A stretch of 64,000 bases of DNA from Candidatus Staskawiczbacteria bacterium RIFOXYB1_FULL_37_44 (GTDB taxonomy: Bacteria > Patescibacteriota > Minisyncoccia > Minisyncoccales > Staskawiczbacteraceae), in the NCBI GenBank assembly GCA_001822065.1, contig MHPJ01000015.1, positions 7,186 through 71,185 on the forward strand, given 5' to 3'. Position numbers and translations under genes: made by a program. Below, in pieces: positions 6,241 to 52,716 of this stretch. A model generated the notes under the pieces. It ran no database searches, had not been told where the DNA came from, and saw only the letters and a list, made by a program, of their open reading frames with translations. Numbering within the stretch: the first letter of the stretch is position 1; each line of letters starts with the position of its first letter.

Positions 6241-6303
6241 CCAGCCCAAAAAGGCTGTTTTTTCTTTGACTACTTTATGCTAAAATTATATGATTAGTTA
6301 ATA
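6241..6303 (+). promoter_or_regulatory. Conserved RM-cassette leader, copy 1 (hairpin/T-run, then TTGACT-17 nt-TATGAT promoter)
   Basis: ccagcccaaaaaggctgttttttctttgactactttatgctaaaattatatgattagttaata. Matches 8811-8873 with about six differences. Confidence 0.55.
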
Positions 6304-8445: not shown

Positions 8446-8468
8446 AAATTAATTGAGAAATAAAAATT

Positions 8469-8771: not shown

Positions 8772-8810
8772 CAAAGCATAAATAGCTCACCGCGACGAGT
8801 TATTCTGACC

Positions 8811-8873
8811 CCAGCCCCAAAGGCTGTTTTTGTTTTGACTAGTTTATGTTAAAATTATATGATTAGTTAATAA
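8811..8873 (+). promoter_or_regulatory. Conserved RM-cassette leader, copy 2
   Basis: ccagccccaaaggctgtttttgttttgactagtttatgttaaaattatatgattagttaata. Same hairpin plus TTGACT-17-TATGAT layout as 6241-6303. Confidence 0.55.
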
Positions 8874-8877
8874 AAAT

Positions 8878-16300: not shown

Positions 16301-16379
16301 GCGGGCATAGTCCAGCCTGGTTCAAGACGCCTCCCTGTCACGGAGGAGATCGGGGGTTCAAATCCCCCTGCCCGCGCCA
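16301..16379 (+). tRNA. tRNA-Asp(GUC), CCA encoded
   Basis: Acceptor gcgggca/tgcccgc, anticodon stem-loop cctcc-ctGTCac-ggagg, canonical T-arm ggggg-ttcaaat-ccccc, discriminator g, then cca (16377-16379). Confidence 0.9.
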
Positions 16380-17984: not shown

Positions 17985-17987
17985 ACA

Positions 17988-18058
17988 CCTTAAAGGGACA
18001 TCTGGTCGCCCAACTCGTTATCCCGAAGGATGCGTTATTGGCAGATGCCCCTTTAAGG
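17988..18058 (-). promoter_or_regulatory. Inverted repeat in the leader of recombinase no. 1
   Basis: ccttaaagggacatctg (17988-18004) and cagatgcccctttaagg (18042-18058). 17-nt arms with one mismatch, starting 4 nt upstream of the start codon. Confidence 0.35.
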
Positions 18059-18121
18059 CAACAACGCAACCATAAAAAAATTCGGGACAATAATAAGTTA
18101 GGCGACAATTTAATTATAACG

Positions 18122-19252: not shown

Positions 19253-19260
19253 AAGCAGAA

Positions 19261-19485
19261 TTACTTGGTTGTAGTATTACTCCCTTGCTTGGAAGACGGC
19301 TCATCGGCTTTGTTTAGGCGCTTTTGCAATTCTTGGTATTCTTTTTCAGTAATTGGCCTGTAAACCAACTGAACCATACGAACCAGCTTAGCGCCTTTTT
19401 CATAAGCGTCTTCTTTACTTAACTCTTTGCCAAAATGCTTTTTATAAAGAGCTTGAAATTTTGCTATCCTTTCTTCAGACAACAT
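19261..19485 (-). CDS. Hypothetical small protein (74 aa)
   Basis: ORF packed tightly between neighbouring same-strand ORFs. No recognisable motif. Confidence 0.45.
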   Translation of the reverse strand: MLSEERIAKFQALYKKHFGKELSKEDAYEKGAKLVRMVQLVYRPITEKEYQELQKRLNKADEPSSKQGSNTTTK

Positions 19486-19489
19486 ATGA

Positions 19490-19777
19490 TTAGTTGCTGT
19501 AAATGCGGTTTTTTAACATCTTTATATTGTCAAAGAACGCACGAGCTTTTATTTCAAGTTTATTAGCCCAGTAATCGTTAACGACCTTTTCTATGCCAGC
19601 CCCAAGATAGAATGAGAATTTAATCTTACGAGGATTAGTCCTGTCTAATGAAAAAAGTTCAAACCCAGCCGTAATTAGCGAAGCAGATACGCCCAAATCA
19701 TAAGTGCTTAAGAACCCATTGTCTGAGGTAGCGTTTTTATTTTTAGGTAATTGATTTTTTGATAATTTTTTGGTCAT
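19490..19777 (-). CDS. Hypothetical protein (95 aa), DUF5659-like
   Basis: The pattern YDLGVSASLITAGFELFSLDRTNPRKIKFSF resembles small phage/mobile-element proteins. Low certainty. Confidence 0.45.
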   Translation of the reverse strand: MTKKLSKNQLPKNKNATSDNGFLSTYDLGVSASLITAGFELFSLDRTNPRKIKFSFYLGAGIEKVVNDYWANKLEIKARAFFDNIKMLKNRIYSN

Positions 19778-20086
19778 ATAATTTATGTTAAAATTTCAAA
19801 AAACCAGACAAAAAAACCAACAGTTATTTACTGCTGGTTTTATATTGTGAGCTTATGTGGAAATGAAAAAGCCAAAACAACAAATACCAGTCTATTAAAC
19901 AAACTGTTATTCATTGTCTTGGCTTCTTAGCTACCCATAGAACGGGTAGATTACCTAAAAAATCTTGAACAAGGCTCGCATTATGTCAGACCCATAAAAG
20001 GGGTAAGCCCATAAATTGATGCAAATTTTTGATTGATTTTAAGAACTTTACCTTATTATACTTTATTTAACTGCGCTATGTCAAGT

Positions 20087-21088
20087 TTATTTAACGGGAG
20101 TGAAACCAAAACGATTTTTTATTTTTTGTTTTTTTCTCTTTTCTAACTCCTTTTTAATTTCGCTGAGGGGTAATTTTTTTGTAGTCATAAATTTTATTTT
20201 TCCATTTTTATCTATGCTGAAGTAGTTTCTTTTTCGGCATTTATAGCACACTCTAAATTTACGGACACGAAAATCATTTAGATAGTCAGATATTTGTTTT
20301 TCTTCAGTGAGGTTTTCTTGTAGGAAGTGTCCACAACTTGCGCATCGCCAATCTGTATCATTATTTTTTTGCAGAAATAAACTAATCCTTTTTTGCAACG
20401 ATGTATTGGTTAGTTTCCTTATTTCTTCTTCTAATTTTTTAATGGGGTCTGCGATTATTACGAAACTTTTTGGCACTGCCGATACGCCCATTATTTGCGG
20501 TCTTGGCAGGTCTTTCCATTCAACATCTGGCTCATCGTCATAAAGTATTTTTATATTGCCAGAATAATCTGCTATCCAAGAAGCAACATCTAAATACTTA
20601 TTATCTAAATCGGAAAACTCAATCATTCTTTTTGGAAGGAAAACCTGAAAAGAGGCGAGTGCTTCAAGAACATAATTTAGTTCCTTTTTCTTTTTATATT
20701 CTTGGGGTATTTTATACAGTTTATCTTTTGCGATTTCTATAAATTCAATTAGCTTGTTTTTTGTCAGATAAAGTTCAATAAAATCGTGTGAAGAATAGTC
20801 ATATTTATCTTCTTCATTTATAAATTTGATTGCGCCCCTGTATTCAAGCCTCATCAAGGACTCTATCAAACTACTGTCTGATAAATCATAAATATCTTCT
20901 TTCCCTGATTTTAGTATTTCAGAAACATCTGCCCCATCTAATTTTATGTAATTATTGCTCAAAAGTATGTTTGGCTTTTCAGTGATAATTTTTAACAGCT
21001 TTTCTGCCACAAAAAGGTTTTGATTTTCAATCGCTTTTTTTTGCATATCAATATAATTTTTATTGTAATTTTGCCTTATTTTTAACAT
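20087..21088 (-). CDS. Hypothetical protein with C-terminal zinc ribbon
   Basis: 333-aa ORF. WRCASCGHF...VCYKCRKRNYF Cys4 motif near the C-terminus. No other recognisable domain. Confidence 0.55.
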   Translation of the reverse strand: MLKIRQNYNKNYIDMQKKAIENQNLFVAEKLLKIITEKPNILLSNNYIKLDGADVSEILKSGKEDIYDLSDSSLIESLMRLEYRGAIKFINEEDKYDYSSHDFIELYLTKNKLIEFIEIAKDKLYKIPQEYKKKKELNYVLEALASFQVFLPKRMIEFSDLDNKYLDVASWIADYSGNIKILYDDEPDVEWKDLPRPQIMGVSAVPKSFVIIADPIKKLEEEIRKLTNTSLQKRISLFLQKNNDTDWRCASCGHFLQENLTEEKQISDYLNDFRVRKFRVCYKCRKRNYFSIDKNGKIKFMTTKKLPLSEIKKELEKRKKQKIKNRFGFTPVK

Positions 21089-21221
21089 ATTTAGGCCACT
21101 TTTTCAATTATGGCTTTAAGTTGCGGACTTTATCTTTTTTTAATTTTAAGATAGTATAAATATAACAATTTAATAATGAGCCTAACCCTTATGAGTTCTG
21201 AAATTTATAAGGTATGGCACA

Positions 21222-21359
21222 AAAACGGTTCAGGCCATTAAGCTCTCAGTCAGAGCACCTGAACCATCATATTCCGAAAGGTATATGGGTGTCGCAAGAC
21301 ATCGCTGGCTGGGAGCTTTATGTTTCCAGCGAGCGAAGGCATAAATAAAACGGTTCAGG
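21222..21359 (+). promoter_or_regulatory. Structured leader of the type III mod gene with three mutually complementary 8-13 nt elements
   Basis: aaaacggttcagg at 21222-21234 and again at 21347-21359 (abutting the ATG at 21361). Complementary cctgaacc at 21258-21265. Nested hairpins gctct-cagtc-agagc, a GCAA-loop stem, and cgctgg...ccagcg. Confidence 0.4.
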
Positions 21360-21360
21360 T

Positions 21361-23028
21361 ATGCCAAATGAAAAAGAACTTCTTGAAGAAGTTAAATTTC
21401 TTAAAGAAGAAATAAAGAAAATAAAACCTAAAAAATACGGCCTTCTTTGGGAAACCAAAGACGAGGATGTTGTTTTGCAGTGCAAGGAAGAATTACCAGT
21501 TTTGATAGAAGATGACAAGAAGGAAATAAAAACAGATAAAAGCAAGCCCGTAAACATTCTAATTGAAGGAGATAATTATCACGCTCTTTCTGTTTTGAAT
21601 TACACTCATCAAGGAAAAATTGATGTCGTTTACATTGACCCGCCATATAATACTGGCGCAAAAGACTGGAAATATAATAATCATTTTGTTGATAATCTTG
21701 ATACCTATCGGCACAGTAAATGGATTTCAATGATGAACAGCCGTATTCGTTTAGCAAAGAAATTATTACAAAATACAGGGATTTTTATCTGTGCCGTAGA
21801 CCATTATGAACTTTTTAATTTAGGCCTGCTTTGTGATGAAATTTTTGGAGAAGAAAACAGATTGGGAGTAATTACAGTTGTCCATAAGCCAGAAGGAAGA
21901 CAGTTTGCAAATTTTTTTAGTCCTTCAAACGAGTTTATGCTGGTATATGCTAAAAATAAAAATTTAGCTAAATTTCAGGATGTTGTTTTAAGCGAGGGAA
22001 AATTAGAAGAATTTAACGAAGAAGATGAAAAAGGAAAATTCAAACTGCAAAATTTTATAAGGTTGACTGATGGAAAATATAGTTTAAGAAAAAATAAGCC
22101 CGCAGGATTTTATCCAATTTATGTAAGTAGTGATTTGATGAAATTTAGTCTTGAGAAAAAGGCCAACTATGAGGAGGCCTTACCAATAACAAATAAGGGG
22201 ATAGAGAGAGTATGGAAAACTTTTGGAGATACTTTTATGGAAAAGGTTGAAGATGGAGTTATTGTCGCAAAAAGAGAAAATGGAAAGTTAGTTTTATATG
22301 AAAAATTAAGGCCGAGCCAAGTATTGACGACTCATTGGATTGATAAAAAATATCACGGCTATCACTATGGCACGAAACTTTTAGAAGAAATTCTTGGAGA
22401 AAAAGTATTTGATTTTCCAAAATCGCTATATTTACTAATTGATATACTTAAAATTACGACCAACGAAAAAGCCATTATATTAGATTTTTTTGCTGGTTCA
22501 GGCACTACTGGACACGCAGTTTTGGAATTGAATAAAGCCGATGGTGGTAATCGGCAGGTAATTTTATGCACGAATAATGAAAACAAAATCGCAGAAAATG
22601 TTTGCTATCCAAGAATGAAGAAAGTTATTGATGGTTATTCATCTAACAAAGGGTTGGGCGGAAACTTAAAATACTACAAAACTGATTTCGTTGATGCTGA
22701 ACCAACAGACATAAATAAGAAAAAACTTGTTGATAAGTCAACAGAAATGTTGTGTCTTAAAGATGACTGTTTTAATGAAATAAAAAGAACTAAAACTTAT
22801 AGCATTTTTACCAATAATTGGGGCAAAAATTTAGGCATTATCTACGATGATGCTGGCATAGCTCCCTTCAAAAAAGAGGTGGAAAAGATAAACAAAAAAT
22901 TTATTGTTTATGTTTTTTCTTTAGATGAAAGCGCAAGAGAAGAAGAATTTGAAGATATAAAAAAGTTGGTTGAATTAAAGCCAATCCCAGCAGTTATTCT
23001 TAATGTGTATAAGCGTATATTCAAATGA
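21361..23028 (+). CDS. mod: Type III restriction-modification methyltransferase (Mod)
   Basis: 555-aa ORF. Motif IV VVYIDPPYNTG before motif I LDFFAGSGTTGHAV (beta-class) with a central variable region. Overlaps the downstream res gene by 4 nt. Confidence 0.9.
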   Translation: MPNEKELLEEVKFLKEEIKKIKPKKYGLLWETKDEDVVLQCKEELPVLIEDDKKEIKTDKSKPVNILIEGDNYHALSVLNYTHQGKIDVVYIDPPYNTGAKDWKYNNHFVDNLDTYRHSKWISMMNSRIRLAKKLLQNTGIFICAVDHYELFNLGLLCDEIFGEENRLGVITVVHKPEGRQFANFFSPSNEFMLVYAKNKNLAKFQDVVLSEGKLEEFNEEDEKGKFKLQNFIRLTDGKYSLRKNKPAGFYPIYVSSDLMKFSLEKKANYEEALPITNKGIERVWKTFGDTFMEKVEDGVIVAKRENGKLVLYEKLRPSQVLTTHWIDKKYHGYHYGTKLLEEILGEKVFDFPKSLYLLIDILKITTNEKAIILDFFAGSGTTGHAVLELNKADGGNRQVILCTNNENKIAENVCYPRMKKVIDGYSSNKGLGGNLKYYKTDFVDAEPTDINKKKLVDKSTEMLCLKDDCFNEIKRTKTYSIFTNNWGKNLGIIYDDAGIAPFKKEVEKINKKFIVYVFSLDESAREEEFEDIKKLVELKPIPAVILNVYKRIFK

Positions 23029-25211
23029 TTGAGCTAAAAGATTACCAAAAAAAAGCAGTAGAAAATCTGCATAGAAAAATAGAAAACTCTTTAAGGTCTT
23101 CTGATAATGAAGTAGTTATTTTTCAAGCCCCAACTGGTTCTGGTAAAACAGTGATGGTTTCTGAATTACTTAAGGAGCTTATTTCGGGCAGAGAAGACGA
23201 CAAAAAGTTTTCTTTTGTTTGGGTTTCCGTAAGGATGTTGCACGAACAAAGCAAAGAGAAATTAGAAGTTTATTATGAAGACAACAGGTCTTTGAAATGC
23301 TCATATTTTGAAGATTTGGAAGACAAAAAAATAGGCGAGAACGAAATCCTATTTATAAATTGGCACAGCATAAACAAAAAAGACATCAACCTTTTTGTAA
23401 GAGATAATGAGCAGGATAATAACTTAAATTCAATAATAAAAAATACAAAGGATGATAATAGAACCATTATTTTAATTATTGACGAAAGTCATCACACAGC
23501 AAACTCGGAAAAATCAAAAGAACTTATTGAAATAATTAGTCCAAAAATAACATTAGAGGTTTCTGCTACCCCGCATTTAACCGAAAACATAGCCGAGATA
23601 GAAAAAGTCCGCTTGTTTGATGTTAAGGCAGAAGAAATGATTAAATCTGAAATTTCTGTAAACCCAGAATTTCTTGATGCTAAAATCGGCACTAAAAGCT
23701 CGGACGAGGTTGTTATTGAGGAGGCCTTAAAAAAAAGAGAGGAGCTGGCCAAAATGTATAAAAAAGAAGGTTCAAAAATAAATCCTTTGATGCTTATTCA
23801 GCTACCAGATAATAAAGCTGGCCTGATTAGTAAGCAGGAAGGAGTCATCAAAATTTTAGGAAAAAAGAGAATAACAGAAAAAAACGGTAAGCTGGCTATC
23901 TGGTTGTCAGAAGAGAAATCAGACACCCTGCCCGATATAGAAAAAAATAATAGCGATGTTGAAGTCTTAATTTTCAAACAGGCCATTGCTCTTGGCTGGG
24001 ATTGCCCCAGAGCTTCAATTTTAGTAATTTTTAGGGAGTCTAAAAGTTTTACCTTTACAATACAGACTATTGGTAGAATAATGAGGATGCCCGAATTAAA
24101 ATACTATTCAAAAGAACCAGACCTGAATAATGGTTTCGTTTTTACTAATCTTCCGAGCATTGAGATAACCGAAGAATATGCTAAAGACTACATCACTATT
24201 TATGAGGCAAAAAGAGATAACAAAATTTATAAAGATATTTCTTTGCCATCCATCTATTTGAAAAGGCAAAGAGAAAGAACTCGTTTGTCGGGAGAATTTC
24301 TAAAACTTTTCTTGAAGGTTGCAGTAGAAAACGATTTGGCGCAGAAGGTTAATCTTAAACCAGTTAAGATAATAAGCCCAATAATAGCTGATGGCAAAAT
24401 TGTTGATATTGATAAGTTTGGAGAAATAGAACATAAGGGAACGATAAGCGTTGCGCTTAATGAAAAAGAACTACAAGAAAGGTTTGATAAATTCATTTTT
24501 CAAAACTGCACCCCCTATGCACCAGTTGATTCCAGCGACAGAATGAAAACTGCTTTATATCAATTTTTTAACCAAAAATTTAAGTTTGAAAAATACGACC
24601 CGAAAGTCCAAAGAATTGTTTTGGGGAAAGAAAATGTTCAGCTATTTGTAGATGCCATCAACTTGGCCAAAGAAAGATACAAAAAGGAAGTCATTGAAAA
24701 ATTAAGCGAGAAGAGGGAACTGCAAGAAACTCCCAGTTGGGAAGTGCCGATGTTTATTACCTATAACAGTAGATATAAGGCCGAGATACAGCCCCTTTCT
24801 GCCGTAAAACCCTTCTACACGGCCAAACCAAGCGAACCAGAGCGATTATTTATAGAGATGCTCAATGGTTCAAAGGAGATTAAATGGTGGTATAAAAATG
24901 GCGATACCGAGATAAAATACTTCGCCGTTTTGAGGGAAGATGATTTTGCTTTCTACCCAGACTTTATATTTCAGATGAAAGACGGCACTATTTGGATACT
25001 TGATACTAAGTCTGGCAGGACGGCTGAAACAAGTGATGCTAAGCCGAGAGCCGAAGCCTTACAAAAGTATATCAAGACTCAAAACAAAAAAGGTAAAAAT
25101 CTTATGGGAGGCATTGCGGTTTATGTGAATGGAACTTGGAGATACAACGATAACGAAAAATATGAATACGACCCGAACGACCTATCAAGCTGGAAAGTGC
25201 TTGGATTGTAA
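23025..25211 (+). CDS. res: Type III restriction enzyme Res subunit (SF2 helicase plus PD-(D/E)xK nuclease)
   Basis: 728-aa ORF. Walker A QAPTGSGKT, motif II IIDESHH, C-terminal nuclease-like FYPDFIFQMKDGTIWILDTKSG. Confidence 0.9.
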   Translation: MIELKDYQKKAVENLHRKIENSLRSSDNEVVIFQAPTGSGKTVMVSELLKELISGREDDKKFSFVWVSVRMLHEQSKEKLEVYYEDNRSLKCSYFEDLEDKKIGENEILFINWHSINKKDINLFVRDNEQDNNLNSIIKNTKDDNRTIILIIDESHHTANSEKSKELIEIISPKITLEVSATPHLTENIAEIEKVRLFDVKAEEMIKSEISVNPEFLDAKIGTKSSDEVVIEEALKKREELAKMYKKEGSKINPLMLIQLPDNKAGLISKQEGVIKILGKKRITEKNGKLAIWLSEEKSDTLPDIEKNNSDVEVLIFKQAIALGWDCPRASILVIFRESKSFTFTIQTIGRIMRMPELKYYSKEPDLNNGFVFTNLPSIEITEEYAKDYITIYEAKRDNKIYKDISLPSIYLKRQRERTRLSGEFLKLFLKVAVENDLAQKVNLKPVKIISPIIADGKIVDIDKFGEIEHKGTISVALNEKELQERFDKFIFQNCTPYAPVDSSDRMKTALYQFFNQKFKFEKYDPKVQRIVLGKENVQLFVDAINLAKERYKKEVIEKLSEKRELQETPSWEVPMFITYNSRYKAEIQPLSAVKPFYTAKPSEPERLFIEMLNGSKEIKWWYKNGDTEIKYFAVLREDDFAFYPDFIFQMKDGTIWILDTKSGRTAETSDAKPRAEALQKYIKTQNKKGKNLMGGIAVYVNGTWRYNDNEKYEYDPNDLSSWKVLGL

Positions 25212-25422
25212 GTTGAAAAAAGTTTAATAAAAAAGGGAGCAAACAAAAAGCTCTCTTTTTTCGTATAAATATAATAGGTAGTTAAATCGTTAATTTAATC
25301 TTCATATAATTAGGTTATTATTGTATATTACTGTATGATAAAGGAACTTGATTGTTTGGGGAAAATATGCTATTGACACTGTATCCATATTTTGAGAAAA
25401 TATACTAATCTAATATAACATT

Positions 25423-26136
25423 ATGGTATTCAAAGCTATCAAAACTAATCGTAGCCTTAGAATTCCACCGAAGAAGTCAGAGGCATATTTGTCTGACCTT
25501 TTTTTTATTTTATATTTTATATATCTCAATAAAGACAAAACAAGGAGCAAGATAAATATACAAAAAGGAATAGTATATGTTTTAGAAAAACTTTTGGAGA
25601 AGGGTAAATTAGACGATATAAAAGTATTCAACCTCCCATTTTATCGCTGGACATTCGGCGATTATAACAAATATATTGCTACGGGTTATTTGCCAGAGCT
25701 TATGGGTGGAAATCTCATTGATGAAGGCGAACAACCTTACAACTATAAAACAACAGAAAAGGCGAATAAATTTCTTGAAAGATTTGAAAAGGAAAATAGC
25801 TCTAATGAGGACTTATTATTGATAAAAGATATTATAAATTCTTATCCCAATGAAAACGACTTTTGGAAACCATTCAGGTTCTCTCACGAGAGGAAGGTAA
25901 AAGTTGGTGAACAAGAAAAATCAGTGGATAGCTTGGAAAAAGATGAAAGTATAGCAATAGCATATAATTCTAACCCAGAAGACGAAGACGGCTCTAAGTC
26001 AAACATAATTTCTACGAGCTATCTTTTGGCCTTAAATTCGTTATTGGAAGAAACGAAAATTGGACAACCGAAGGAGTCAGATTTAATAACATCTGAAATA
26101 ATAAGCAAACTCTTTGAAAGTGCGGGAATAGAGTAA
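25423..26136 (+). CDS. Hypothetical protein (237 aa), weak resemblance to Panacea/SocA-type antitoxin domains
   Basis: IQKGIVYVLEKLL...FNLPFYRWTFGDYNKYI resembles the KLQKLLY...F.AW.YGPV pattern recalled from memory. Acidic C-terminus. Uncertain. Confidence 0.45.
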   Translation: MVFKAIKTNRSLRIPPKKSEAYLSDLFFILYFIYLNKDKTRSKINIQKGIVYVLEKLLEKGKLDDIKVFNLPFYRWTFGDYNKYIATGYLPELMGGNLIDEGEQPYNYKTTEKANKFLERFEKENSSNEDLLLIKDIINSYPNENDFWKPFRFSHERKVKVGEQEKSVDSLEKDESIAIAYNSNPEDEDGSKSNIISTSYLLALNSLLEETKIGQPKESDLITSEIISKLFESAGIE

Positions 26137-26145
26137 AATATAGAT

Positions 26146-26592
26146 ATGAAACTCTTTCCTGCAAGTAATCTTGTTCTACTACACACGAGCTTTGAAGTGA
26201 AGCTCGCTTATTTATTTTGTCATAACCCAGAAGCCAAGAAGAATATAACGACCATATTAAAGAGGTTAGAAGAATTTTCAAAAAATCTAAATTTAGCCGA
26301 TGGCACATTAGAGGGAGTAAAAAGGTTCAAGGAGGCGCAGGGGTTAGAAATTTCACGAACTTTCCCTAAGCCATATTTTGATAGTGGTTTCCATAAAGCA
26401 GACGACCTCTTTTTTTATCTAAAAGAGCAAGATGTTAATGGTTATTGGGTAGTTGGTATAGACTTGTTCTTTCCACATCTTTTATCTGAACAGTCTTTGG
26501 CCGAAGAATTAAGGAGTTGCTCTTTTATGGGAGGGTATCCATCATCTAATGATTTAAGGTTCTGCGAAATATACAATATAACTTACAATTAA
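26146..26592 (+). CDS. Hypothetical protein (148 aa)
   Basis: ORF 9 nt downstream of the previous gene (likely co-transcribed). No recognisable motif. Confidence 0.45.
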   Translation: MKLFPASNLVLLHTSFEVKLAYLFCHNPEAKKNITTILKRLEEFSKNLNLADGTLEGVKRFKEAQGLEISRTFPKPYFDSGFHKADDLFFYLKEQDVNGYWVVGIDLFFPHLLSEQSLAEELRSCSFMGGYPSSNDLRFCEIYNITYN

Positions 26593-26669
26593 ATTAAGAA
26601 ACTGGTATTTGGCCTTTATTAGATAGGTCTGGGATGTAAATATACTCTTTTTGTTGTTGTATTGTGGTT

Positions 26670-28214
26670 CTAATAGTGTTCACGAGGTTGCGCAATAATA
26701 AAACTTTTTTCTTTTTTCCCGACGAAATCGTGGGCGGCCGAAATGGCCGCCCAGTGTTTTTGTGAGGGGAAATCCGTTCCGCTCGGCGCGCTGCGGCGCA
26801 CCTCGCGATTTGCCAAAACGAGGTTCAATCCGAAAATTTCTTTAGTAGCAGCCTTTTTATTCAAAAGGCTGCTTTCGTTTGCGGTTTTTGCTATGGTTTG
26901 TGCATAATTTATCCAATTTTGCATAGGTTCAACCCAGCCGAATCGCTTTTGTTCAAGAGTGTTGATTTTTTCTTCCAGCGATTTCTTTTCGCTTACCAGC
27001 TCTGATTTTTTGGCAAGATAAATTTCTCGTTCAACAACTTGGTCAAGGTACGAATCCAGAAGTCGCTGAATTTTAACAGAAATGTTTTCGATTTTTTCTT
27101 GCGCCTCTTGAACAAAAGCGGTGAAAGATTGGGCGGTTTCTATTTTGTCTTTTTCAAGTTTTTTATTTAACTCTTCGGCCCAATCTTTTTTCAAAGAAAA
27201 TTTTTGAAGCAAAGAGGAAATTTGTTTGTCTAAAATTTCTTGCCGCACAGGCGGTTCAGCGCATTTTATTGTTTTTGATTTTCTTGAACATCGGTAATAA
27301 ACATAATGGTGGACATTTCCATTTTTTTGTTTTTTGATTCTTTTTTCCGCAGTTATCATCATTCCGCAGGTTCCGCACCTCAATAATCCGCAAAACGCTT
27401 GCGGTTGGTTTTTACTGCTTTTTCTTATTTTTCCTCTTTGCTTTAAAATTTCTTGAACTTTATCAAAAATTTTCTTTGAAACTATCGGCTGGTGTTTGCC
27501 TTCGTATATTTCTTTGGTATAGCGGAACAATCCAACATAGAACGGATTTTGAAGAATAAACGAAACCCTATCTTTGTGGATTCGCTTTCCGGTTTTTGAT
27601 AATATGCCGTTTTGCGCCAAAAAGTTGGCGATATCTTCCAATCTACTTTCGTTTTTAGCGTAAAGCTCAAATGCTTTGCGGATAATTATACTTCGTTTTT
27701 TGTGAACCATAATTGATTTTGTCCGCACATCATTTATGTAGCCAATCGGCGCAAGCCCTGGATATTCTCCGCGTTTGGCTTTTTGGCGTTGTCCTCGTTT
27801 CGTGTTTTCGGAAAGCGAATCAATGTAGTATTTGCTTTGTCCGAAAGCGATGTTTAGCATAAATTTTCCCTGTGGCGTTGGTTCAAACCAAAATGTTGAA
27901 AATTTTAACGCTTGCAAATGCCCGCAGTCTACAAGATAAATTATTTTTCCGCCGTCAACAGAATTGCGCGCCAGCCTGTCAGGATGCCATGCCAAAATTC
28001 CGTTAGCTTCGCCTTTTTCAATTCGTTTTATCATTTCGTTGAAAATTGGTCTGCCCGGAATTTTGGCAGATTGTTTTTCAATTAACTCATCAACAATTTC
28101 TAAATTTTCCTTTTCGGCAAAATCGCGCAATTCAGCGATTTGGTCTTCAATAGACCTGACTTGTCGTTCTTCCTCATCTGTGGACTTGCGGGCATATAAA
28201 AAGAATTTTTGCAT
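26670..28214 (-). CDS. Large serine recombinase no. 2
   Basis: Start set to MQKFFLYARKSTDEEERQVRSIEDQ (ATG at 28214). Resolvase catalytic domain, zinc ribbon CGTCG...YYRCSRK, coiled coil. The last ~45 codons lie in repeat copy A. Confidence 0.9.
   Translation of the reverse strand: MQKFFLYARKSTDEEERQVRSIEDQIAELRDFAEKENLEIVDELIEKQSAKIPGRPIFNEMIKRIEKGEANGILAWHPDRLARNSVDGGKIIYLVDCGHLQALKFSTFWFEPTPQGKFMLNIAFGQSKYYIDSLSENTKRGQRQKAKRGEYPGLAPIGYINDVRTKSIMVHKKRSIIIRKAFELYAKNESRLEDIANFLAQNGILSKTGKRIHKDRVSFILQNPFYVGLFRYTKEIYEGKHQPIVSKKIFDKVQEILKQRGKIRKSSKNQPQAFCGLLRCGTCGMMITAEKRIKKQKNGNVHHYVYYRCSRKSKTIKCAEPPVRQEILDKQISSLLQKFSLKKDWAEELNKKLEKDKIETAQSFTAFVQEAQEKIENISVKIQRLLDSYLDQVVEREIYLAKKSELVSEKKSLEEKINTLEQKRFGWVEPMQNWINYAQTIAKTANESSLLNKKAATKEIFGLNLVLANREVRRSAPSGTDFPSQKHWAAISAAHDFVGKKEKSFIIAQPREHY
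26698..26832. repeat. Recombinase-3'-end module, copy A (inside the recombinase no. 2 CDS)
   Basis: ~135 bp, GC-rich, with hairpin gggcggcc-gaaat-ggccgccc and a GC-rich arm pair that is imperfect in copy A (ggtgcgc/gcgcgcc). Direct orientation relative to 30652-30783; inverted relative to 28395-28530. Confidence 0.85.
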
Positions 28215-28394
28215 AAATTTGTTTTGTTTAATTTTAATCAACTTAAATGGCCGCCCCGGTGCACTCAATCCAAGTTGCCTTGAACTGTCCGAGACGGCCA
28301 TTGAAAAAGACAACTTGTTCGACTGAGTGCAATTTTATTATATCACAGCCAGAAGAAAAGCAAAAATTCTTTTTATCGGGCAAAGCAAATACTA

Positions 28395-35971: not shown

Positions 35972-36550
35972 ATGATGGAAGATAATTATATAAAAAAAGA
36001 CGGATACAAAAAAAGGCCATTGTGGCAATGGATTTTATTGTACGTTGTGGCAGCCGGAGCTGCTTATGGTTTGATATATTATTTTTTCTTCGGGAAAAAT
36101 AATGACTATGTTTATAATCAAAGTCAGAACCAAACCAATAATCAGCAAAACACCGGTGCGATATCCAACGATTATTTTTTAAATTTAAGTAATAATGGGC
36201 TAACAAGTTTATCACAATCTATTTTTGACCAAACAAATTTACAGGAACTTGATATATCGAACAATTCGCTTACTGGCGCCATTCCTGCTGAAATAAGAAA
36301 ACTAAAAAATTTAATAATTCTTAATGCCAGTTATAATCAAATGACTGGTGTGCCTGCAGAAATTGGCCAATTATTAAATTTGCAAGTTCTTGATTTGTCC
36401 TACAATCAAATAACTGGTTTGCCCAATGAACTGGGAAATTTAAAAAATTTGAAAACGTTAAATTTATCTGGTAACGCATATTCTCAGCAAGACCTTAATG
36501 GCATACGCAGCAAGCTTCCGACAACTGTAAATATTATTATAAGCCAGTAG
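35972..36550 (+). CDS. Membrane-anchored leucine-rich-repeat protein
   Basis: TM helix followed by about five LxxLxLSxNxLTGxIPxEIGxLxN repeats. Confidence 0.75.
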   Translation: MMEDNYIKKDGYKKRPLWQWILLYVVAAGAAYGLIYYFFFGKNNDYVYNQSQNQTNNQQNTGAISNDYFLNLSNNGLTSLSQSIFDQTNLQELDISNNSLTGAIPAEIRKLKNLIILNASYNQMTGVPAEIGQLLNLQVLDLSYNQITGLPNELGNLKNLKTLNLSGNAYSQQDLNGIRSKLPTTVNIIISQ

Positions 36551-42822: not shown

Positions 42823-43965
42823 ATGAGAAATAATATAATTATAAATGACGAAAAAGAGCAGGAATTAATTTTAGATCTGCAAAAACGTACAGACATTAAG
42901 GCAGAAAGAATTAAACGGCTTTTATCTTTGCCCGACCTCACAAAGAAAGAAAATTCTCCTGTAAAAATTATAAATGATAAAATATTGGAGCTACCAATAT
43001 GGGCTGATTTTGATATAGTTGATATTCCTAAAATTGTAACTGTTCAAGACGATTTCGATCTTTTAAATACGCCAAAGGACCATCCAAGCAGAAGAGAATC
43101 AGACACTTATTATTTGGATAAAACTCATATTTTGAGAACCCAGATGACCGTGATGTGGCCTTATTATTTTAGAGATAAAGAAGTTTTGGAGAGATTAAAA
43201 AAAGATGGTGAAGTCGGATCGCTGTCACCGGGAATTGTTTGGCGCAAAGACGAAATTGACCGTAAACATTTTCCGGCTTTTCATCAAACAGATTTTTTGT
43301 ATGTGTGCAGGAAAGATAAAAGAATTATTACGCTTAAAGAGCTGCAAGATGTTCAAGCAGATGCGGTAAGGACAATCTTTGGCGACATTGAATTTAGATT
43401 TTTAGTTGATACTTTTCCTTTTACCGACCCATCAACTCAAGTTGAAATAAATTGGGGAGGAAACTGGATTGAGATAACTGGAGCTGGGCTTGTGCATCCT
43501 AATTGTTTGAAAAATTTTGGATTGGATCCAGAAATTTATAACGGTTATGCCGGTACATTTGGATTGGACAGAGTTGCAATGGTAAAAATGGGAATTTCTG
43601 ATATCAGAATTTTTTGGTCTGAAGACCAGAGAATTACGAGTCAGTTTAAAGATATAAATTCAAAATACAAAGAAGTCAGCAAATATCCTGAAACTTCGCG
43701 CGATATATCTTTTATAATAGACAAGAATATAAATTTAAATAATTATTACGAAATTGTAAGAGATTTTGCGGAAAATTTAATTGAAGAAGTAAAACTGGTT
43801 GACAGTTATGAAGATGACGCAAAGTTTGGCAATAATAAAAAAAGTTATACATTCAGAATTATTTACCGCAGTCCGGAAAAAACTTTAACCAATGAAGAAA
43901 TTAATGTTATTCAAGAAAAAATCCGCATCAAAACAGCGCAAGACCTAAACGCAATTTTGCGATAA
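42823..43965 (+). CDS. pheS: Single-chain phenylalanyl-tRNA synthetase, mitochondrial (FARS2)-like architecture
   Basis: Class II core (DHPSRRESDTYYL, FPFTDPS, GAG..HPNCL, GLDRVAMVKMGISDIRIFW) fused to a C-terminal FDX-ACB-type anticodon-binding domain (SKYPETSRDISFII...YTFRIIYRSPEKTLTNEE). Confidence 0.8.
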   Translation: MRNNIIINDEKEQELILDLQKRTDIKAERIKRLLSLPDLTKKENSPVKIINDKILELPIWADFDIVDIPKIVTVQDDFDLLNTPKDHPSRRESDTYYLDKTHILRTQMTVMWPYYFRDKEVLERLKKDGEVGSLSPGIVWRKDEIDRKHFPAFHQTDFLYVCRKDKRIITLKELQDVQADAVRTIFGDIEFRFLVDTFPFTDPSTQVEINWGGNWIEITGAGLVHPNCLKNFGLDPEIYNGYAGTFGLDRVAMVKMGISDIRIFWSEDQRITSQFKDINSKYKEVSKYPETSRDISFIIDKNINLNNYYEIVRDFAENLIEEVKLVDSYEDDAKFGNNKKSYTFRIIYRSPEKTLTNEEINVIQEKIRIKTAQDLNAILR

Positions 43966-48158: not shown

Positions 48159-48584
48159 ATGGCAAAAGAAATAAAAGCTATTGTAAAAATACAAATCCCA
48201 GCTGGTAAAGCAACTCCGGCGCCTCCAATTGGACCGGCCTTGGCCCAGCACGGTTTGAATATTGCGGAGTTTTGCCAAAAGTTTAATGCGGCAACTCAGC
48301 AATTGGCAGGTTACAAAATTCCGGCAGAAGTTACAATTTATAAAGACAGGTCTTATGTTTTTAAATTGAAAACTCCTTTGGCAGCCGAACTTATAAAAAA
48401 AGTAATTGGAATTGAAAAGGGAAGCGGAGTTCCAAACAAAACCAAAGTTGGAAAAATTACAAAATCCCAATTGAAAGAAATTGCCGAGAAAAAAATGCCC
48501 GACCTAAACACCACAGATATAGAACAGGCAATAAAAATTATTGCCGGCACCGCCAAAAACATGGGCGTGGAAGTAAAAGATTAA
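48159..48584 (+). CDS. rplK: 50S ribosomal protein L11
   Basis: [26 protein letters not shown] signature. Confidence 0.95.
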
Positions 48585-48744
48585 ATCTAAATTAAACAAT
48601 AAAAAGCAGTTCTGTAAAGAATTGCTTTTTATTTTACATAAGTGGTAGAATGGGTATACTAAAATTATTAAATTCACCCAGTTAGATAATTTTGCTTTGG
48701 CAAAATTAAAATCCCGAAGGATTTTATTTAACCGGGAAAAAAAT

Positions 48745-49338
48745 ATGGAAAATCAAAAACACGTTCGTCCATCATGGGATGATTATTTTTTAAATTTATT
48801 AGAGCCAATTGGAAGCAGGGGAAGCTGTGACAGAGGCAGGAGTGGAGCTGTAATTGTTGGGTCAGGTCACACAATAATTGCAACCGGATATGTGGGAGCT
48901 GCTCCGGGGCAGCCGCATTGCGACGAAGTTGGGCATATGATGAATACTGTTATTCATGAAGACGGAACCCAGTCTCAGCATTGCGTCCGAACCTTGCATG
49001 CGGAAGAAAATGCAATTTTGCAATGCGCGAAAGACGGTATAAGCGTTGCGGGCTCTACAATTTACACAAAAATGGTTCCTTGTTATAATTGCGCAATGAG
49101 AATTGTAAGAGTTGGAATTAAGAGGGTGGTTGCAACAAAAAGATATCATTCCGATCAATTGTCGGTAAAACTTTTTAGGGATGCAGAAGTTAATTTGGTA
49201 GTTATGGATAATGCCGTGGAAGAATACAAAAATCAAAGCAATACAGTGAATGATACGCCAAAAGAATTTAAAAGCATAAAAGAAATTTTTGTAGAACAGG
49301 GGAAAACAATAGATGTTAATAAAATAGAACAAGCTTGA
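48745..49338 (+). CDS. dCMP deaminase (ComEB/Dcd-type zinc deaminase)
   Basis: Start at MENQKHVRPSWDDYF. HAEENAI and PCYNCA zinc-binding motifs. Confidence 0.85.
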   Translation: MENQKHVRPSWDDYFLNLLEPIGSRGSCDRGRSGAVIVGSGHTIIATGYVGAAPGQPHCDEVGHMMNTVIHEDGTQSQHCVRTLHAEENAILQCAKDGISVAGSTIYTKMVPCYNCAMRIVRVGIKRVVATKRYHSDQLSVKLFRDAEVNLVVMDNAVEEYKNQSNTVNDTPKEFKSIKEIFVEQGKTIDVNKIEQA

Positions 49339-49341
49339 ATC

Positions 49342-50490
49342 ATGGATAAAAATGACGAGCAAATTTTAGTGGTGCCGAGCGAAATTATTTTTGCTAAGGA
49401 AAAATGGCAAGGATTAAAAACAGACAATCTTGATTATTATTTGGATTTGATAAAAAATAATTGCCAGTTCAAAAGAAGGGGTGACATGGAAAATGATCCG
49501 TCTTTCCAACAGATAATTCCATATATGCTGTTTAGTTTTGGCGATAAATTTTTTGCTTATAATTATTTAAAAAACGCGGGAGAACAGCGTTTGGTAAACA
49601 CAGACTACCAGCTCGGTGTGGGTGGCCATATAAACAAAGACGACATAAATGGAGACACAGACGTTTTGGAAACCGGCATGGCGCGAGAGTGGGAAGAAGA
49701 AGTGGATTTTAAAGGGAATTTTTTGCAAAAAAGATTGGTTGGCATAATAAATGACGACTCGCGCGAAGTGGAAAAAGTGCATTTGGGTTTGGTTTATCAT
49801 TTTGTTGGAGACAGCCCAGAAATTCTTGTTAAAGAAACAGATAAAATGAAGGGCAAACTTTTTGACCTAAAAGATATTTCAGAAAATATCAGCCACAGCC
49901 CGTGGATGCAAATAGTCTACAAAAATTATTTATTTAAGTTTTTAAAAACTAAAAAAATTATCGGCGTAACCGGAGAAATTGGGGCGGGCAAAGATACTTT
50001 TTGCCAGTATGTAAAAGAAAACTTTCCAAATGTTTCTATCTTTAGATTTTCTGATGCGTTGACAGAAGTTTTAAAAATATTTTTTGATTCGGTAAAAAGG
50101 GATGACCAGCAATGGATCAGCACTCAATTAAGAGAAAGATTTGGTCAGGATATTTTGGTAAAAGCCTTGATTAAAAAAATAAACAATATAAGCGAAGGAG
50201 TAGTTATTTTAAATGGAGTTCGTAGGCCCGGAGATTTTACGGCTTTAAAACAAATTGCCGGAAAGCTTGTTTATGTAGGAGCTGACGTAAGAAAGAGATG
50301 GGAAAGAGTTGTGTTAAGAAAAGAAAAAGCAGATGACGATGTGCCTTTCGAAAAATTTTTAGAGCTGAGCGGAGCCGAAGCCGAGCAGCAAATTTCCGCA
50401 ATTGGCGGACAAGCTGATTTTAGAATAGAAAACAACGGCTCAAAAGAAGAATTTTTTTCACAAATAAAAAAAGTAATAGATTTAATATAA
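49342..50490 (+). CDS. Fusion: Nudix-like hydrolase domain plus P-loop nucleotide kinase domain
   Basis: N-terminal half has a Nudix-box-like GGHINKDD..ETGMAREWEEEVDF. C-terminal half has Walker A GVTGEIGAGKDT, resembling dNMP/dephospho-CoA kinases. Confidence 0.6.
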   Translation: MDKNDEQILVVPSEIIFAKEKWQGLKTDNLDYYLDLIKNNCQFKRRGDMENDPSFQQIIPYMLFSFGDKFFAYNYLKNAGEQRLVNTDYQLGVGGHINKDDINGDTDVLETGMAREWEEEVDFKGNFLQKRLVGIINDDSREVEKVHLGLVYHFVGDSPEILVKETDKMKGKLFDLKDISENISHSPWMQIVYKNYLFKFLKTKKIIGVTGEIGAGKDTFCQYVKENFPNVSIFRFSDALTEVLKIFFDSVKRDDQQWISTQLRERFGQDILVKALIKKINNISEGVVILNGVRRPGDFTALKQIAGKLVYVGADVRKRWERVVLRKEKADDDVPFEKFLELSGAEAEQQISAIGGQADFRIENNGSKEEFFSQIKKVIDLI

Positions 50491-52658
50491 TGGAAAAAGG
50501 GAAATTTTTTGTGTTTGAGGGCATAGACGGATGTGGCAAAGCAACTCAAACAAGATTATTGACGGAGTATTTTGGGCAAGAGGGTTTTGACGTGGAAAAA
50601 ATTGATTTTCCCCAGCACGGAGAGCGGTCTTCTGCTATGGTTGACGATTATTTGACTGGAAAATATGGAGAATCAAAATCTGTGCCGGAAAAGGTTGCCT
50701 CAATTTTCTACGCAACAGACAGATATGATGCCAGCTTCAAAATTAAAAAATGGTTAGATGAAGGAAAAATTGTGGTTTCGGACAGATATTTGGTTTCAAA
50801 CATCGGGCACCAAGGTGGAAAGGTTGTAAATGACGCAGAAAAATGGAAAAATTATGTAAATTGGCTGTATGATTTGGAATACGGAATTTTCGGAATTCCA
50901 AAACCAGACTATACTTTTATTTTGAAAACTTCGGCGGAGTTTTCAATGAAATTGGCAAATAAAATAACTGACCCAGAAAAAAAACAGACAAGAATAAACT
51001 ATTTGGGCGATGATAAAAAACAGGATATACACGAAAAAGACGGAAGCCATTTGGAAAACGCCCTAAAGTCTTATTTAATTGCGGCGAAAGAATTTCCAAA
51101 CGATTTTGCAGTTGTGGAATGCTTGGAAAATGGAGAAATGCTGCCCGCTGAAATTATAAATAAAAAAATAATAAATATAATTGAAAATAAGAAAAAAATT
51201 ATGCCAGCAGAAAGACGAATTTATGCGTTGCCGAATAATTTAATGCCCGAAGTAAAAGCGGTAACTTTTGCCAAGTGTTCAAGGTCGGCGGAACCTTTTG
51301 ATAAAATTGCGCAGGAACTTACCGATGAAAAGTCAGCCGAATTCCATGAAAAGTGGGTGGTGGGTTTTGGACATTCGTCAATTGCCGAGCATGCAGTAAT
51401 TTCTTTGGCAGTTGAAAATGTTTCAAACATTGCCACAAAAGTTATTGAAGATTCGAGGCTGGCTTCTTTTACAGAAAAATCTTCGCGCTACCAAATTTTC
51501 AACAAAGACAAATTGTATATGCCAGAAGGAATAATGAATTCTGATTTAAAAGATATATATTTGAATGCTGTAAATTTATTAATGGATGCTTATGAAGAAA
51601 TGACAGCGCCTATGATGGATTTTGTAAAACAAAAATATCCAAAACCCGATGATCAAGATGAAAAGCTTTACAATATGGTTTCAAAAGCCAGAGCCTGCGA
51701 TAATTTGAGATATTTATTGCCTTCTGCTGTTTTAACAAATCTGGGAATGACAATTAACACAAGAGAACTCGAACATTTAATTGCAAAATTATTATCGCAT
51801 CCACTAAAAGAAATGCAGGATATTGGAAAAGAAATGAAAGAAAAAGCAATGGAAGCGGTTCCTACTTTATTAAAATTTGCAAACAAAAATAATTATATTG
51901 CTGAAACAAAAAAGCAGTTGTCAAATATTGCAAAATGGGAATTGGGTAGGGAAGCGGGAAATAACCAAGCAGTAACAATTGTGAATTATGATAAAGACGC
52001 AACAGATAAATTAATTGCAGGAATTTTATATCCGTATTCCGATTTGTCGTATGAAGAAATTGCGAGGAAAGTTAAGAATTTGCCAAACGATAAAAAAGAA
52101 AAAATAATTGATGAAACGTTGAGCCGCAGAGAAAAGTTTGACCAGCCTTTGCGCGAGCTTGAGCACATCTATTATACCTTTGATATTTTGCTTGATTACG
52201 GAGCATTTCGCGATGTTCAGCGCCACAGAATGTGCACGCAATCAAACCAGCCCGTAACTGTAGTGCATGGATACGATTTACCGCCCGAAATTCGCGAAGC
52301 GGGTTTTGAAGACAAATTTAGGGCAGTGGTGGAAAAAGCAGCCGATGCTTTTCAAAAAATTTATGAGAAATTTCCAGATGAAGCGCAATATGTTGTTCCA
52401 ATGTGTTTTAGAAAACGAGTTTTAATCACCTGGAATTTGCGCGAATTGCATCACTTTATTTCCTTACGGTCTGGCAAGAAAGGCCATGCATCTTACCGCA
52501 GAATCGCGCAAGAGTGCTGGAAAAAATTAAATGAAATCCAGCCTTTGCTGGCAAAATATATCCGCTGCGATATGGATGAAATGTCTGTTTCATGGGCAGC
52601 CTCGTTGGAAAACAAAGATTTTTACTACAACCCCTACGCCGCCCGCGTAAAATCCTAG
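50490..52658 (+). CDS. Fusion: thymidylate kinase plus tandem (pseudo-dimeric) flavin-dependent thymidylate synthase ThyX
   Basis: Tmk: FFVFEGIDGCGKATQ, DRY. ThyX-like domain 1: GFGHSSIAEH...SRLASFTEKSSRY (RHR replaced). ThyX-like domain 2: FRDVQRHRMCTQS...NLRELHHFISLRSG..GH. Confidence 0.8.
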   Translation: MEKGKFFVFEGIDGCGKATQTRLLTEYFGQEGFDVEKIDFPQHGERSSAMVDDYLTGKYGESKSVPEKVASIFYATDRYDASFKIKKWLDEGKIVVSDRYLVSNIGHQGGKVVNDAEKWKNYVNWLYDLEYGIFGIPKPDYTFILKTSAEFSMKLANKITDPEKKQTRINYLGDDKKQDIHEKDGSHLENALKSYLIAAKEFPNDFAVVECLENGEMLPAEIINKKIINIIENKKKIMPAERRIYALPNNLMPEVKAVTFAKCSRSAEPFDKIAQELTDEKSAEFHEKWVVGFGHSSIAEHAVISLAVENVSNIATKVIEDSRLASFTEKSSRYQIFNKDKLYMPEGIMNSDLKDIYLNAVNLLMDAYEEMTAPMMDFVKQKYPKPDDQDEKLYNMVSKARACDNLRYLLPSAVLTNLGMTINTRELEHLIAKLLSHPLKEMQDIGKEMKEKAMEAVPTLLKFANKNNYIAETKKQLSNIAKWELGREAGNNQAVTIVNYDKDATDKLIAGILYPYSDLSYEEIARKVKNLPNDKKEKIIDETLSRREKFDQPLRELEHIYYTFDILLDYGAFRDVQRHRMCTQSNQPVTVVHGYDLPPEIREAGFEDKFRAVVEKAADAFQKIYEKFPDEAQYVVPMCFRKRVLITWNLRELHHFISLRSGKKGHASYRRIAQECWKKLNEIQPLLAKYIRCDMDEMSVSWAASLENKDFYYNPYAARVKS

Positions 52659-52716
52659 CAATTAAAAAACAGCTTGAAATAAGAGCTGTTTTTTAGTATA
52701 TTAAATTAATAAATAT

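Follow-up and report, generated by a model that had tools for sequence, protein, structure and literature searches.

A probable thymidylate-supply gene cluster in a Staskawiczbacteria genome encodes thymidylate kinase fused to a tandem ThyX with complementary active-site motifs

A 64,000-nucleotide (nt) stretch of DNA from Candidatus Staskawiczbacteria bacterium RIFOXYB1_FULL_37_44 (here referred to as the window) carries a compact cluster of three plus-strand genes at positions 48745-52658. According to open reading frame (ORF) calls, they encode a deoxycytidylate (dCMP) deaminase, a Nudix domain joined to a P-loop kinase, and a chain in which thymidylate kinase (Tmk) is followed by two domains of the FAD-dependent thymidylate synthase ThyX. 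ORFs and profile matches agree on these three genes, and the family memberships and fusions uphold the first-pass annotation of the locus as a deoxythymidine triphosphate (dTTP) synthesis cluster built partly from fused enzymes. We consider it likely that the cluster is a housekeeping thymidylate-supply operon, that the two halves of its tandem ThyX divide the labor of the active site within a two-site dimer, and that the fusion to Tmk is recent.

The core of this reading lies in gene 3 (50490..52658, plus strand), whose 722-amino-acid (aa) product matches the ThyX profile Thy1 (PF02511) in two stretches (E value of 1.3e-56) and scores 111.1 bits against TIGR02170 (cut-off, 87.9). Domain 1, which we regard as the half on the side of deoxyuridylate (dUMP), spans residues 238-472 (51201..51905, plus strand) by alignment to 3GWC and 3N3Y. 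Domain 2, the half on the side of flavin adenine dinucleotide (FAD), spans residues 473-722 (51906..52658, plus strand) by alignment to 2AF6, 3FNN, and 3AH5. Profile-profile comparison with hhalign indicates that the halves are homologous (probability of 96.9%, E value of 1.8e-10) and leaves a gap in domain 2 opposite the Ser-x-Arg-Tyr segment of domain 1. The earlier proposal of two real ThyX domains with complementary losses is borne out by the two Thy1 stretches, the hhalign result, and the residue alignments.

In alignments to Mycobacterium tuberculosis and Helicobacter pylori ThyX, the domain 1 motif (DSRLASFTEKSSRY; 51450-51491, plus strand) reads D321-S322-R323-x7-S331-S332-R333-Y334, and its domain 2 counterpart (RHRMCTQSNQPVTV; 52221-52262, plus strand) reads R578-H579-R580-x7-P588-V589-T590-V591. 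Neither domain by itself holds the full RHR-x7-S-x-R-Y signature in these alignments; only the two together supply all of it. The ThyX motif is genuinely split. The first-pass annotation had described domain 2 as keeping RHR and losing SxRY, which the sequence (RHR-x7-P-x-TV) confirms, and domain 1 as the reverse, with S-R-L in place of RHR. SxRY is indeed kept in domain 1, but the register of the other element was wrong: RHR aligns to D-S-R rather than S-R-L, so the third Arg of RHR is still present there.

The partition extends beyond the signature. Domain 1 retains H295, S297, R323, E329, S331, R333, Y334, R407, N423, and R425, and it carries D321 and S322 where RHR has its first Arg and its His. 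Domain 2 retains R578-H579-R580, N649, R651, R660, and H666, and it has lost the Ser-x-Arg-Tyr loop (P588, T590, and V591). The helix 3 His/Ser position (His53 in Thermotoga maritima ThyX [Tm]; Ser71 in M. tuberculosis ThyX [Mtb]) is kept in domain 1 as H295 and S297 and lost from domain 2. Likewise, the equivalent of Arg147(Tm)/Arg172(Mtb) is kept in domain 1 as R407 and replaced in domain 2 by Q633, while that of Arg174(Tm)/Arg199(Mtb) is replaced in domain 1 by L434 and kept in domain 2 as R660.

Although the split motif is present at this locus as first described, it is not peculiar to it, being common to a large family of tandem ThyX proteins. A profile of the double-domain protein retrieved 1356 cluster representatives at an E value of ≤1e-30, and the best 150 were nearly all end-to-end matches. 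We aligned the window protein with 137 representatives that are mutually ≤50% identical (n = 138). Within domain 1, the loop Ser and Arg are present in all 138 sequences, as is the helix 3 Ser; the loop Tyr is found in 132 and the Arg147 equivalent in 137. The first RHR position of this domain is occupied by D in 104 sequences, S in 16, and E, N, or A in 3 each, which leaves Arg outside the top five residues (129/138), and the Arg174 position is mostly hydrophobic (L in 96, M in 33). Within domain 2, the R, H, and R of the motif occur in 138, 130, and 137 sequences, respectively, and the Arg174 equivalent is invariant (138/138); the loop Ser position varies freely (P/L/D/E/V), and the Arg147 position holds Q, A, or S. 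A separate set of 120 closer homologues displays the identical pattern of retained and lost residues.

Double-domain ThyX is encoded in at least 590 species-representative genomes. These include many Patescibacteria, DPANN archaea (Woese-, Aenigm-, and Iainarchaeota), Methylomirabilota (NC10), Armatimonadota, Blastocatellia, Entotheonella, Myxococcota, Nitrospirota, and Anaerolineae, the last with the cultured species Longilinea arvoryzae. Cluster look-ups of representatives of 496-539 aa returned Myxococcota, Armatimonadota, Tectomicrobia, Woesearchaeota, and Nitrospirota and no Chlamydia. The chlamydial ThyX, at about 529 aa, might be a characterized tandem member.

Structure prediction with AlphaFold2 (AF2) for residues 236-722 gave a mean predicted local distance difference test score (pLDDT) of 79 and a predicted template modeling score (pTM) of 0.80. 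The model contains two ThyX-like halves with a repeated secondary-structure pattern and is of low confidence only at the termini and in the His/Ser helix 3 loop, an element described as mobile in ThyX (PMC11940539). A Foldseek search of the Protein Data Bank (PDB) with this model matched single-domain ThyX chains only (2AF6, 1O26, and 3N3Y), with TM-scores of 0.6-0.75 relative to the target and ≤0.35 relative to the query, and we conclude from this that the PDB holds no tandem ThyX structure. Databases annotate the family simply as "FAD-dependent thymidylate synthase." The literature that we searched contained no description of a tandem ThyX or of a Tmk-ThyX fusion, an absence that is not proof of novelty, and no account of a division of labor between ThyX halves or of a two-site dimer.

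Published work on the M. tuberculosis enzyme assigns the residues of one ThyX site to three subunits, with subunit A giving RHR (95-97) and Arg199, subunit B giving Ser71 and Arg190, and subunit C giving Ser105, Arg107, Tyr108, Arg87, and the backbone of Gln103 (PMC6514825). Independently of that assignment, His53 of ThyX has been placed on a third monomer, away from Arg78 and the 86-97 loop (PMC11940539). Read against these roles, the aligned tandem protein keeps exactly the A-role residues in domain 2 (RHR and the Arg199 equivalent) and the B- and C-role residues in domain 1, so that all of its losses fall in the same two of four sites.

These correspondences suggest a model in which an internal duplication would have replaced two of the four subunits of a homotetramer, founding what is now a large and old subfamily. 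Domain 2 would serve FAD binding and dUMP activation through RHR and the Arg174(Tm)/Arg199(Mtb) equivalent, and domain 1 would supply the Ser-x-Arg-Tyr substrate loop, the Arg147 equivalent, and the His53/Ser helix. The four sites of a tetramer with 222 symmetry would be composed as (A,B,C), (B,A,D), (C,D,A), and (D,C,B). With domain 2 in positions A and D and domain 1 in positions B and C, two sites would be complete, each using domain 2 and two copies of domain 1, and every lost residue would belong to the two dead sites. Because the losses partition along subunit roles, we infer that two tandem chains pair into a dimer carrying two FAD/dUMP sites, as opposed to a tetramer with four FAD. Its family membership and intact motifs suggest that it would methylate dUMP to thymidylate (dTMP). 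Composite sites across the two domains had already been envisaged in the first-pass annotation, an idea that fits both the published subunit roles and the family-wide conservation; its corollary of one site per chain does not hold, since a ThyX site needs three subunits and a single tandem chain cannot form one alone.

Several points weigh against this reading of the tandem ThyX and of the operon around it. Both domains keep the equivalents of Asn163/Arg165, and domain 1 keeps the third RHR Arg, so degeneration is not total and the "dead" sites might still be able to bind something. The subunit assignment of Arg147/Arg172 is provisional. AF2 modeled the full 722-aa protein poorly (pTM of 0.38, with many ThyX stretches at a pLDDT of <50), which makes the full-length model uninformative on Tmk docking or channelling. 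The Tmk domain falls under the NCBIfam cut-offs (72.6 versus 83.25 bits for TIGR00041; 96.8 versus 193 for PRK07933). Lastly, residues 1-200 of gene 2 have no significant Pfam match, NUDIX included.

The retained Asn/Arg pair also bears on another explanation for the tandem, namely, that it comprises a working ThyX and a degenerate scaffold copy, in which case either half, or only one, would do the work and the complementarity would be functionally meaningless. Duplicated domains often degenerate, and with this pair in both halves the losses are not perfectly partitioned. However, neither half holds the full residue set: domain 1 is without two-thirds of RHR and the Arg174 equivalent, and domain 2 is without the substrate loop. 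A scaffold would be expected to drift, yet across the 137 representatives each half keeps its retained residues with little or no variation, and the losses follow the A versus B/C roles exactly. We consider the scaffold explanation unlikely and prefer the model of two specialized halves that complete each other across a dimer.

N-terminal to the tandem ThyX lies the kinase domain of gene 3 (residues 1-237; 50490..51200, plus strand), which matches Pfam Thymidylate_kin (PF02223) with an E value of 2.7e-20 and 73.3 bits (cut-off, 27). Together with the two-stretch Thy1 match, this agrees with the initial description of a 722-aa protein that joins Tmk to two ThyX-like domains. The best PDB match of the domain is M. 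tuberculosis TMPK (4UNP; E value of 6.8e-15, aligned over residues 8-176), and AF2 assigns it a pLDDT of about 90. Its motifs include the P-loop EGIDGCGKAT (EGxDGxGK), D77-R78, and D98-R99-Y100. Across 24 aligned Tmk-containing homologues, the P-loop, Asp77-Arg78, Arg99-Tyr100, and Asp140 are invariant or nearly so. From its family membership and intact motifs, the fused Tmk would be expected to phosphorylate dTMP to dTDP.

Could separate genes have been joined into the single Tmk-ThyX-ThyX frame by an assembly error or a frameshift? Among close relatives of the locus, two comparison loci (L003, from another Staskawiczbacteria genome, and L033) do carry tmk and thyX as separate, overlapping genes. 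The 722-aa protein, however, is 100% identical to a Candidatus Staskawiczbacteria (Patescibacteria; Candidate Phyla Radiation [CPR]) protein recorded on 17 contigs from several sources, and relatives from independent genomes at 63-88% identity are also fused in a single frame. Two further loci (L001 and L002) likewise have one open frame across tmk and thyX; in the junction alignment of these two with the window, the tmk stop codon is lost in frame and the ATG of thyX is retained, the ancestral start codon now being the internal Met238 (51201..51203, plus strand). Still longer fusions are known, of the forms Nudix-Tmk-ThyX2 (929 aa), Nudix-kinase-Tmk-ThyX2 (1118 aa; the counterpart of genes 2 and 3 joined), and Nudix-HAD-Tmk-ThyX2 (1155 aa). 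An artefact is scarcely credible in the face of the 17-contig recurrence, the fused relatives, and the junction alignment, which together rule it out. The Tmk-ThyX fusion is real.

About 30 of the 120 best homologues combine Tmk with ThyX, and the others consist of a double-domain ThyX alone, about 485 aa in length. In the majority of lineages, tmk follows the tandem thyX gene (thyX2), whereas in the Staskawiczbacteria group it lies upstream and is fused. The fusion is probably a recent event in which tmk, overlapping thyX at the junction, lost its stop codon.

Canonical homotetrameric ThyX (TM0449, Rv2754c, and the H. pylori enzyme; 1O26, 2AF6, and 3N3Y) shares its fold with both tandem halves, and the tandem chain as a whole contains all of the catalytic and binding residues of the canonical site. 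The expected chemistry would also be the same, converting dUMP to dTMP with FAD, NADPH, and CH2H4folate. The tandem protein differs in consisting of two fused, nonequivalent domains, neither of which has the full signature. Canonical ThyX has four identical sites, whereas the tandem protein is predicted to be a dimer with two and, in the window, additionally bears an N-terminal Tmk.

The monomeric dUTPase of herpesviruses offers a precedent for this kind of change: it is a duplicated version of the trimeric-dUTPase fold whose five motifs are shared between the halves. Both cases involve an enzyme with interface sites that was duplicated and fused, leaving complementary motif subsets and fewer complete sites. 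Fold and reaction are unrelated, and the herpesvirus enzyme is a monomer with one site; with three domains needed per site, the tandem ThyX is instead expected to be a two-site dimer. The fusion to Tmk can be set beside the bifunctional DHFR-TS of protozoa and plants, in which consecutive enzymes of the thymidylate cycle are joined in one chain. Neighboring steps of dTMP metabolism are fused in both, an arrangement that may aid stoichiometry or channelling. The partners here are Tmk and ThyX rather than DHFR and ThyA, and the ThyX reaction yields no dihydrofolate.

ThyX is an antibacterial target whose three-subunit site has resisted dissection, since its four copies are identical. If the proposed model is correct, the tandem ThyX would act as a natural heterotetramer in which each subunit role could be mutated separately, and it would show that two sites suffice. 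Motif-based checks for ThyX will wrongly flag both halves as defective. The operon also illustrates how dTTP supply is organized in minimal genomes (CPR and DPANN).

Gene 2 (49342..50490, plus strand) is, as first proposed, a Nudix-like domain fused to a P-loop nucleotide kinase, an assignment on which matches to 3E57, AAA_18, and PRK08356 agree. The N-terminal domain (residues 1-200; 49342..49941, plus strand) belongs to the TM1382/COG4112 family, since a profile of its homologues matches PDB entry 3E57 (T. maritima TM1382) with an E value of 1.6e-42. Relatives of the domain have weak matches to Pfam NUDIX (E values of 0.001-0.17), and a JGI family name describes it as "predicted NUDIX family phosphoesterase." The Nudix-box core REWEEEV (R-E-x-x-E-E) lies at 49684-49704 on the plus strand, and its R115, E116, E119, and E120 are invariant across the family alignment. 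Compared with the Nudix box G-x5-E-x7-R-E-U-x-E-E-x-G-U, the domain has Asp/Asn in place of the upstream Glu, following a variable insertion. The domain is probably an active pyrophosphohydrolase.

The C-terminal kinase domain of gene 2 (residues 203-382; 49948..50490, plus strand) is AAA_18/UPF0200/DNMK-like, with profile matches to AAA_18 (5.9e-09) and PRK08356 (5.5e-19). Its nearest solved structure is the "AdkA-like" SSO1041 of Sulfolobus solfataricus (3LW7; E value of 9e-11), and it also matches 3H0K (about 1e-10). Relatives almost always encode this kinase as a separate protein of about 180 aa, in many cases with a Pfam match to T4-gp1-like DNMK, and a Nudix-kinase fusion such as that of gene 2 is rare.

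In CPR bacteria, the TM1382-type Nudix domain has been fused to a wide range of partners. Among its relatives, it is joined to dCMP deaminase, dCTP deaminase (DCD), MazG, DHFR, Tmk, HAD-Tmk, Tmk-ThyX2, and kinase-Tmk-ThyX2, the last of these (protein P0009) being equivalent to genes 2 and 3 of the window joined. These fusions provide strong guilt-by-association evidence for a link to deoxypyrimidine metabolism. Our best guess, which draws on the gene fusions only, is that the Nudix domain would turn dUTP or dCTP into a monophosphate that feeds the pathway, a role that fits both the DCD and the dCMP deaminase fusions, and that the kinase would handle another deoxynucleoside monophosphate (dNMP) at the dCMP branch point. 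The Nudix domain is fused even to a PD-(D/E)XK nuclease domain in CPR (set P0126, P0130, P0158, P0178, P0156, and P0123); a simple dUTPase role does not account for the partnerships with DHFR and the nuclease.

The gene 2 domain is a clear homologue of TM1382 (PDB 3E57)/COG4112, sharing the RE-x2-EE core and a link to deoxynucleotides. It differs in that the copy in gene 2 is fused to a kinase and those of relatives to dTTP-pathway enzymes. TM1382/COG4112, whose structure is solved and whose function is so far unassigned, thereby gains a testable context, the conversion of deoxypyrimidine triphosphates to monophosphates. We take YmaB of Bacillus subtilis, encoded in the nrd operon, to be a member of this family. 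Preliminary deoxynucleoside triphosphate (dNTP) pyrophosphohydrolase activity has been described for YmaB (PMC5960316).

Considering the fusions as a whole, it is conceivable, though in our estimate a little short of an even chance, that these proteins, found in most of the Patescibacteria sampled, represent an undescribed structural class of ThyX, obligate two-site dimers in which one half would bind FAD and activate dUMP and the other would contribute the substrate loop and a helix on the folate side, at the core of a linked dTTP "assembly line" in CPR bacteria. The links of such a line would be fusions to Tmk, to the Nudix dUTP/dCTP pyrophosphatase, to dCMP/dCTP deaminases, and to the dNMP kinase.

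Gene 1 (48745..49338, plus strand) encodes 197 aa from the ATG at 48745, with a possible alternative start at TTG 48697. The HAEENA (HAE) and PCYNCA (PCxxC) zinc motifs, noted in the initial call of a dCMP deaminase, are intact, and the protein matches dCMP_cyt_deam_1 (PF00383) with an E value of 2.7e-19, in support of that call. It ends in a C-terminal tail of about 45 aa. Its match to ComEB (TIGR02571; E value of 6.5e-33, 113.8 bits) is under the cut-off of 219, and we therefore treat it as a member of the dCMP deaminase family and not as a ComEB equivalog. By its family membership and intact catalytic motifs, the enzyme would supply dUMP.

A deaminase next to a P-loop kinase also recalls an anti-phage nucleotide-depletion system, and genes 1 and 2 could be read as an AvcD-like dCTP deaminase split into deaminase and kinase. 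The PADLOC "dCTPase" model does match gene 1 (3.5e-18) and the kinase domain of gene 2 (3.9e-13), and NCBIfam NF041025 (AvcD type) is matched by both proteins. Yet the gene 1 match to the PADLOC model spans only the 50-residue zinc core, and the NF041025 scores are 57.1 and 24.2 bits against a cut-off of 400. AvcD, moreover, unites the two activities in one polypeptide, kinase first and deaminase second, whereas the window has two genes in the reverse order. Relatives fuse the Nudix domain that is joined to the kinase in gene 2 to deaminase, Tmk, and ThyX, and P0009 fuses a gene 2-type kinase itself to Tmk-ThyX2.

Gene neighborhoods likewise speak against a defensive role. Adjacency of the dCMP deaminase to the small P-loop kinase is conserved in Patescibacteria (loci L004-L008, L017, L022, L023, L032, L054, and L068), and in many Patescibacteria loci the pair stands in constant order beside thyX, tmk, rplK/rplA, and gatB (nusG-rplK-[rplA]-dCMP deaminase-kinase-thyX2-[tmk]-gatB). 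This conserved order indicates vertical housekeeping inheritance rather than a defense island. Scores, architecture, and housekeeping synteny together lead us to reject the defense reading as very improbable. Within the housekeeping operon that we favor, genes 1 and 2 look like a split, reverse-order relative of the AvcD-type "dCTPase" architecture: portions of the model are matched by the deaminase core of gene 1 and the kinase domain of gene 2, and the genes differ from AvcD in being separate, in opposite order, in a thyX/tmk setting, and far under the cut-off.

The same synteny bears on rplA. In the window (48584-48745) and in L001, rplK is directly followed by the deaminase gene, without rplA, and no L1 homologue was found anywhere in the 64-kb window. 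In 13 other Patescibacteria loci, rplA sits between rplK and the dCMP deaminase cluster (comparison loci L004-L011, L017, L023, L032, L054, L068, and L078), and a position after rplA is the rule for the cluster in most Patescibacteria. This placement shows that the cluster occupies its ancestral place and rules out the idea that it replaced rplA. The first-pass annotation had located the cluster where rplA would normally follow rplK; rplA is indeed absent there, but the cluster did not move in. A large group of Parcubacteria, "OD1-L1," is defined by the lack of rpL1 (PMC5220378), and the loss of rplA from its ancestral place is in line with what would be expected for a lineage of this group.

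The three genes are tightly packed, with a 3-nt gap between genes 1 and 2 (TGA atc ATG) and a 1-nt overlap between genes 2 and 3 (TAATG). The correspondence between gene order and pathway that the first-pass annotation proposed would depend on the substrates of the Nudix and kinase domains. Their neighbors are housekeeping genes, with pheS-like, DUF218, gyrB, secE, nusG, and rplK upstream and gatB, miaA, miaB, thrS, and dnaE downstream. Inspection by eye revealed a plus-strand hairpin at 48601..48630, after the rplK stop codon (48582-48584), consisting of AAAAAGCAGTTCT-gtaa-AGAATTGCTTTTT (a 13-bp stem that includes one G-T pair) followed by a T-run (ATTTT). The hairpin was not listed by the promoter/terminator scan; it looks like a terminator candidate between rplK and the operon. 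Beyond it, the scan identified a sigma-70-like promoter candidate at 48633..48660 on the plus strand (TTTACA, a 16-nt spacer, and TATACT; 10/12 matches). Such sites are no more common around the operon than expected by chance (19 seen versus 17.7 in shuffled sequence), which makes this candidate weak evidence. Directly 3' of the operon stop codon and ahead of gatB, a perfect 11-bp hairpin, also found by eye, occupies 52664..52694 on the plus strand (AAAAAACAGCT, a 9-nt loop, and AGCTGTTTTTT); the scan missed it because its loop exceeds 8 nt. It looks like a terminator candidate before gatB.

The pheS-like gene (42823-43965, plus strand) encodes a 380-aa single-chain protein with a class II catalytic core (tRNA-synt_2d, 2.3e-51) and, at its C terminus, an FDX-ACB anticodon-binding domain (2.7e-25). 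Mitochondrial monomeric PheRS is organized in this way, unlike the alpha2-beta2 enzyme of bacteria, and there is no adjoining pheT. Elsewhere in the window, large serine recombinases on the minus strand (16338-17984 and 26670-28313) lie at both ends of a region at 16338-28313 that may be a mobile island. Between them are a type III restriction-modification system, with a methylase at 21361-23028 and a Res helicase at 23025-25211, and ORFs that have no Pfam matches. In a second restriction-modification cluster at 6303-10861, an N4/N6 DNA methylase with a fused staphylococcal-nuclease domain (8878-10164) lies between an Eco57I-like methylase (6303-7778) and an MjaI-like endonuclease (10154-10861). 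Finally, a 192-aa leucine-rich-repeat protein (LRR_4, 4e-22) is encoded at 35972-36550 on the plus strand, amid the housekeeping genes of this small genome.

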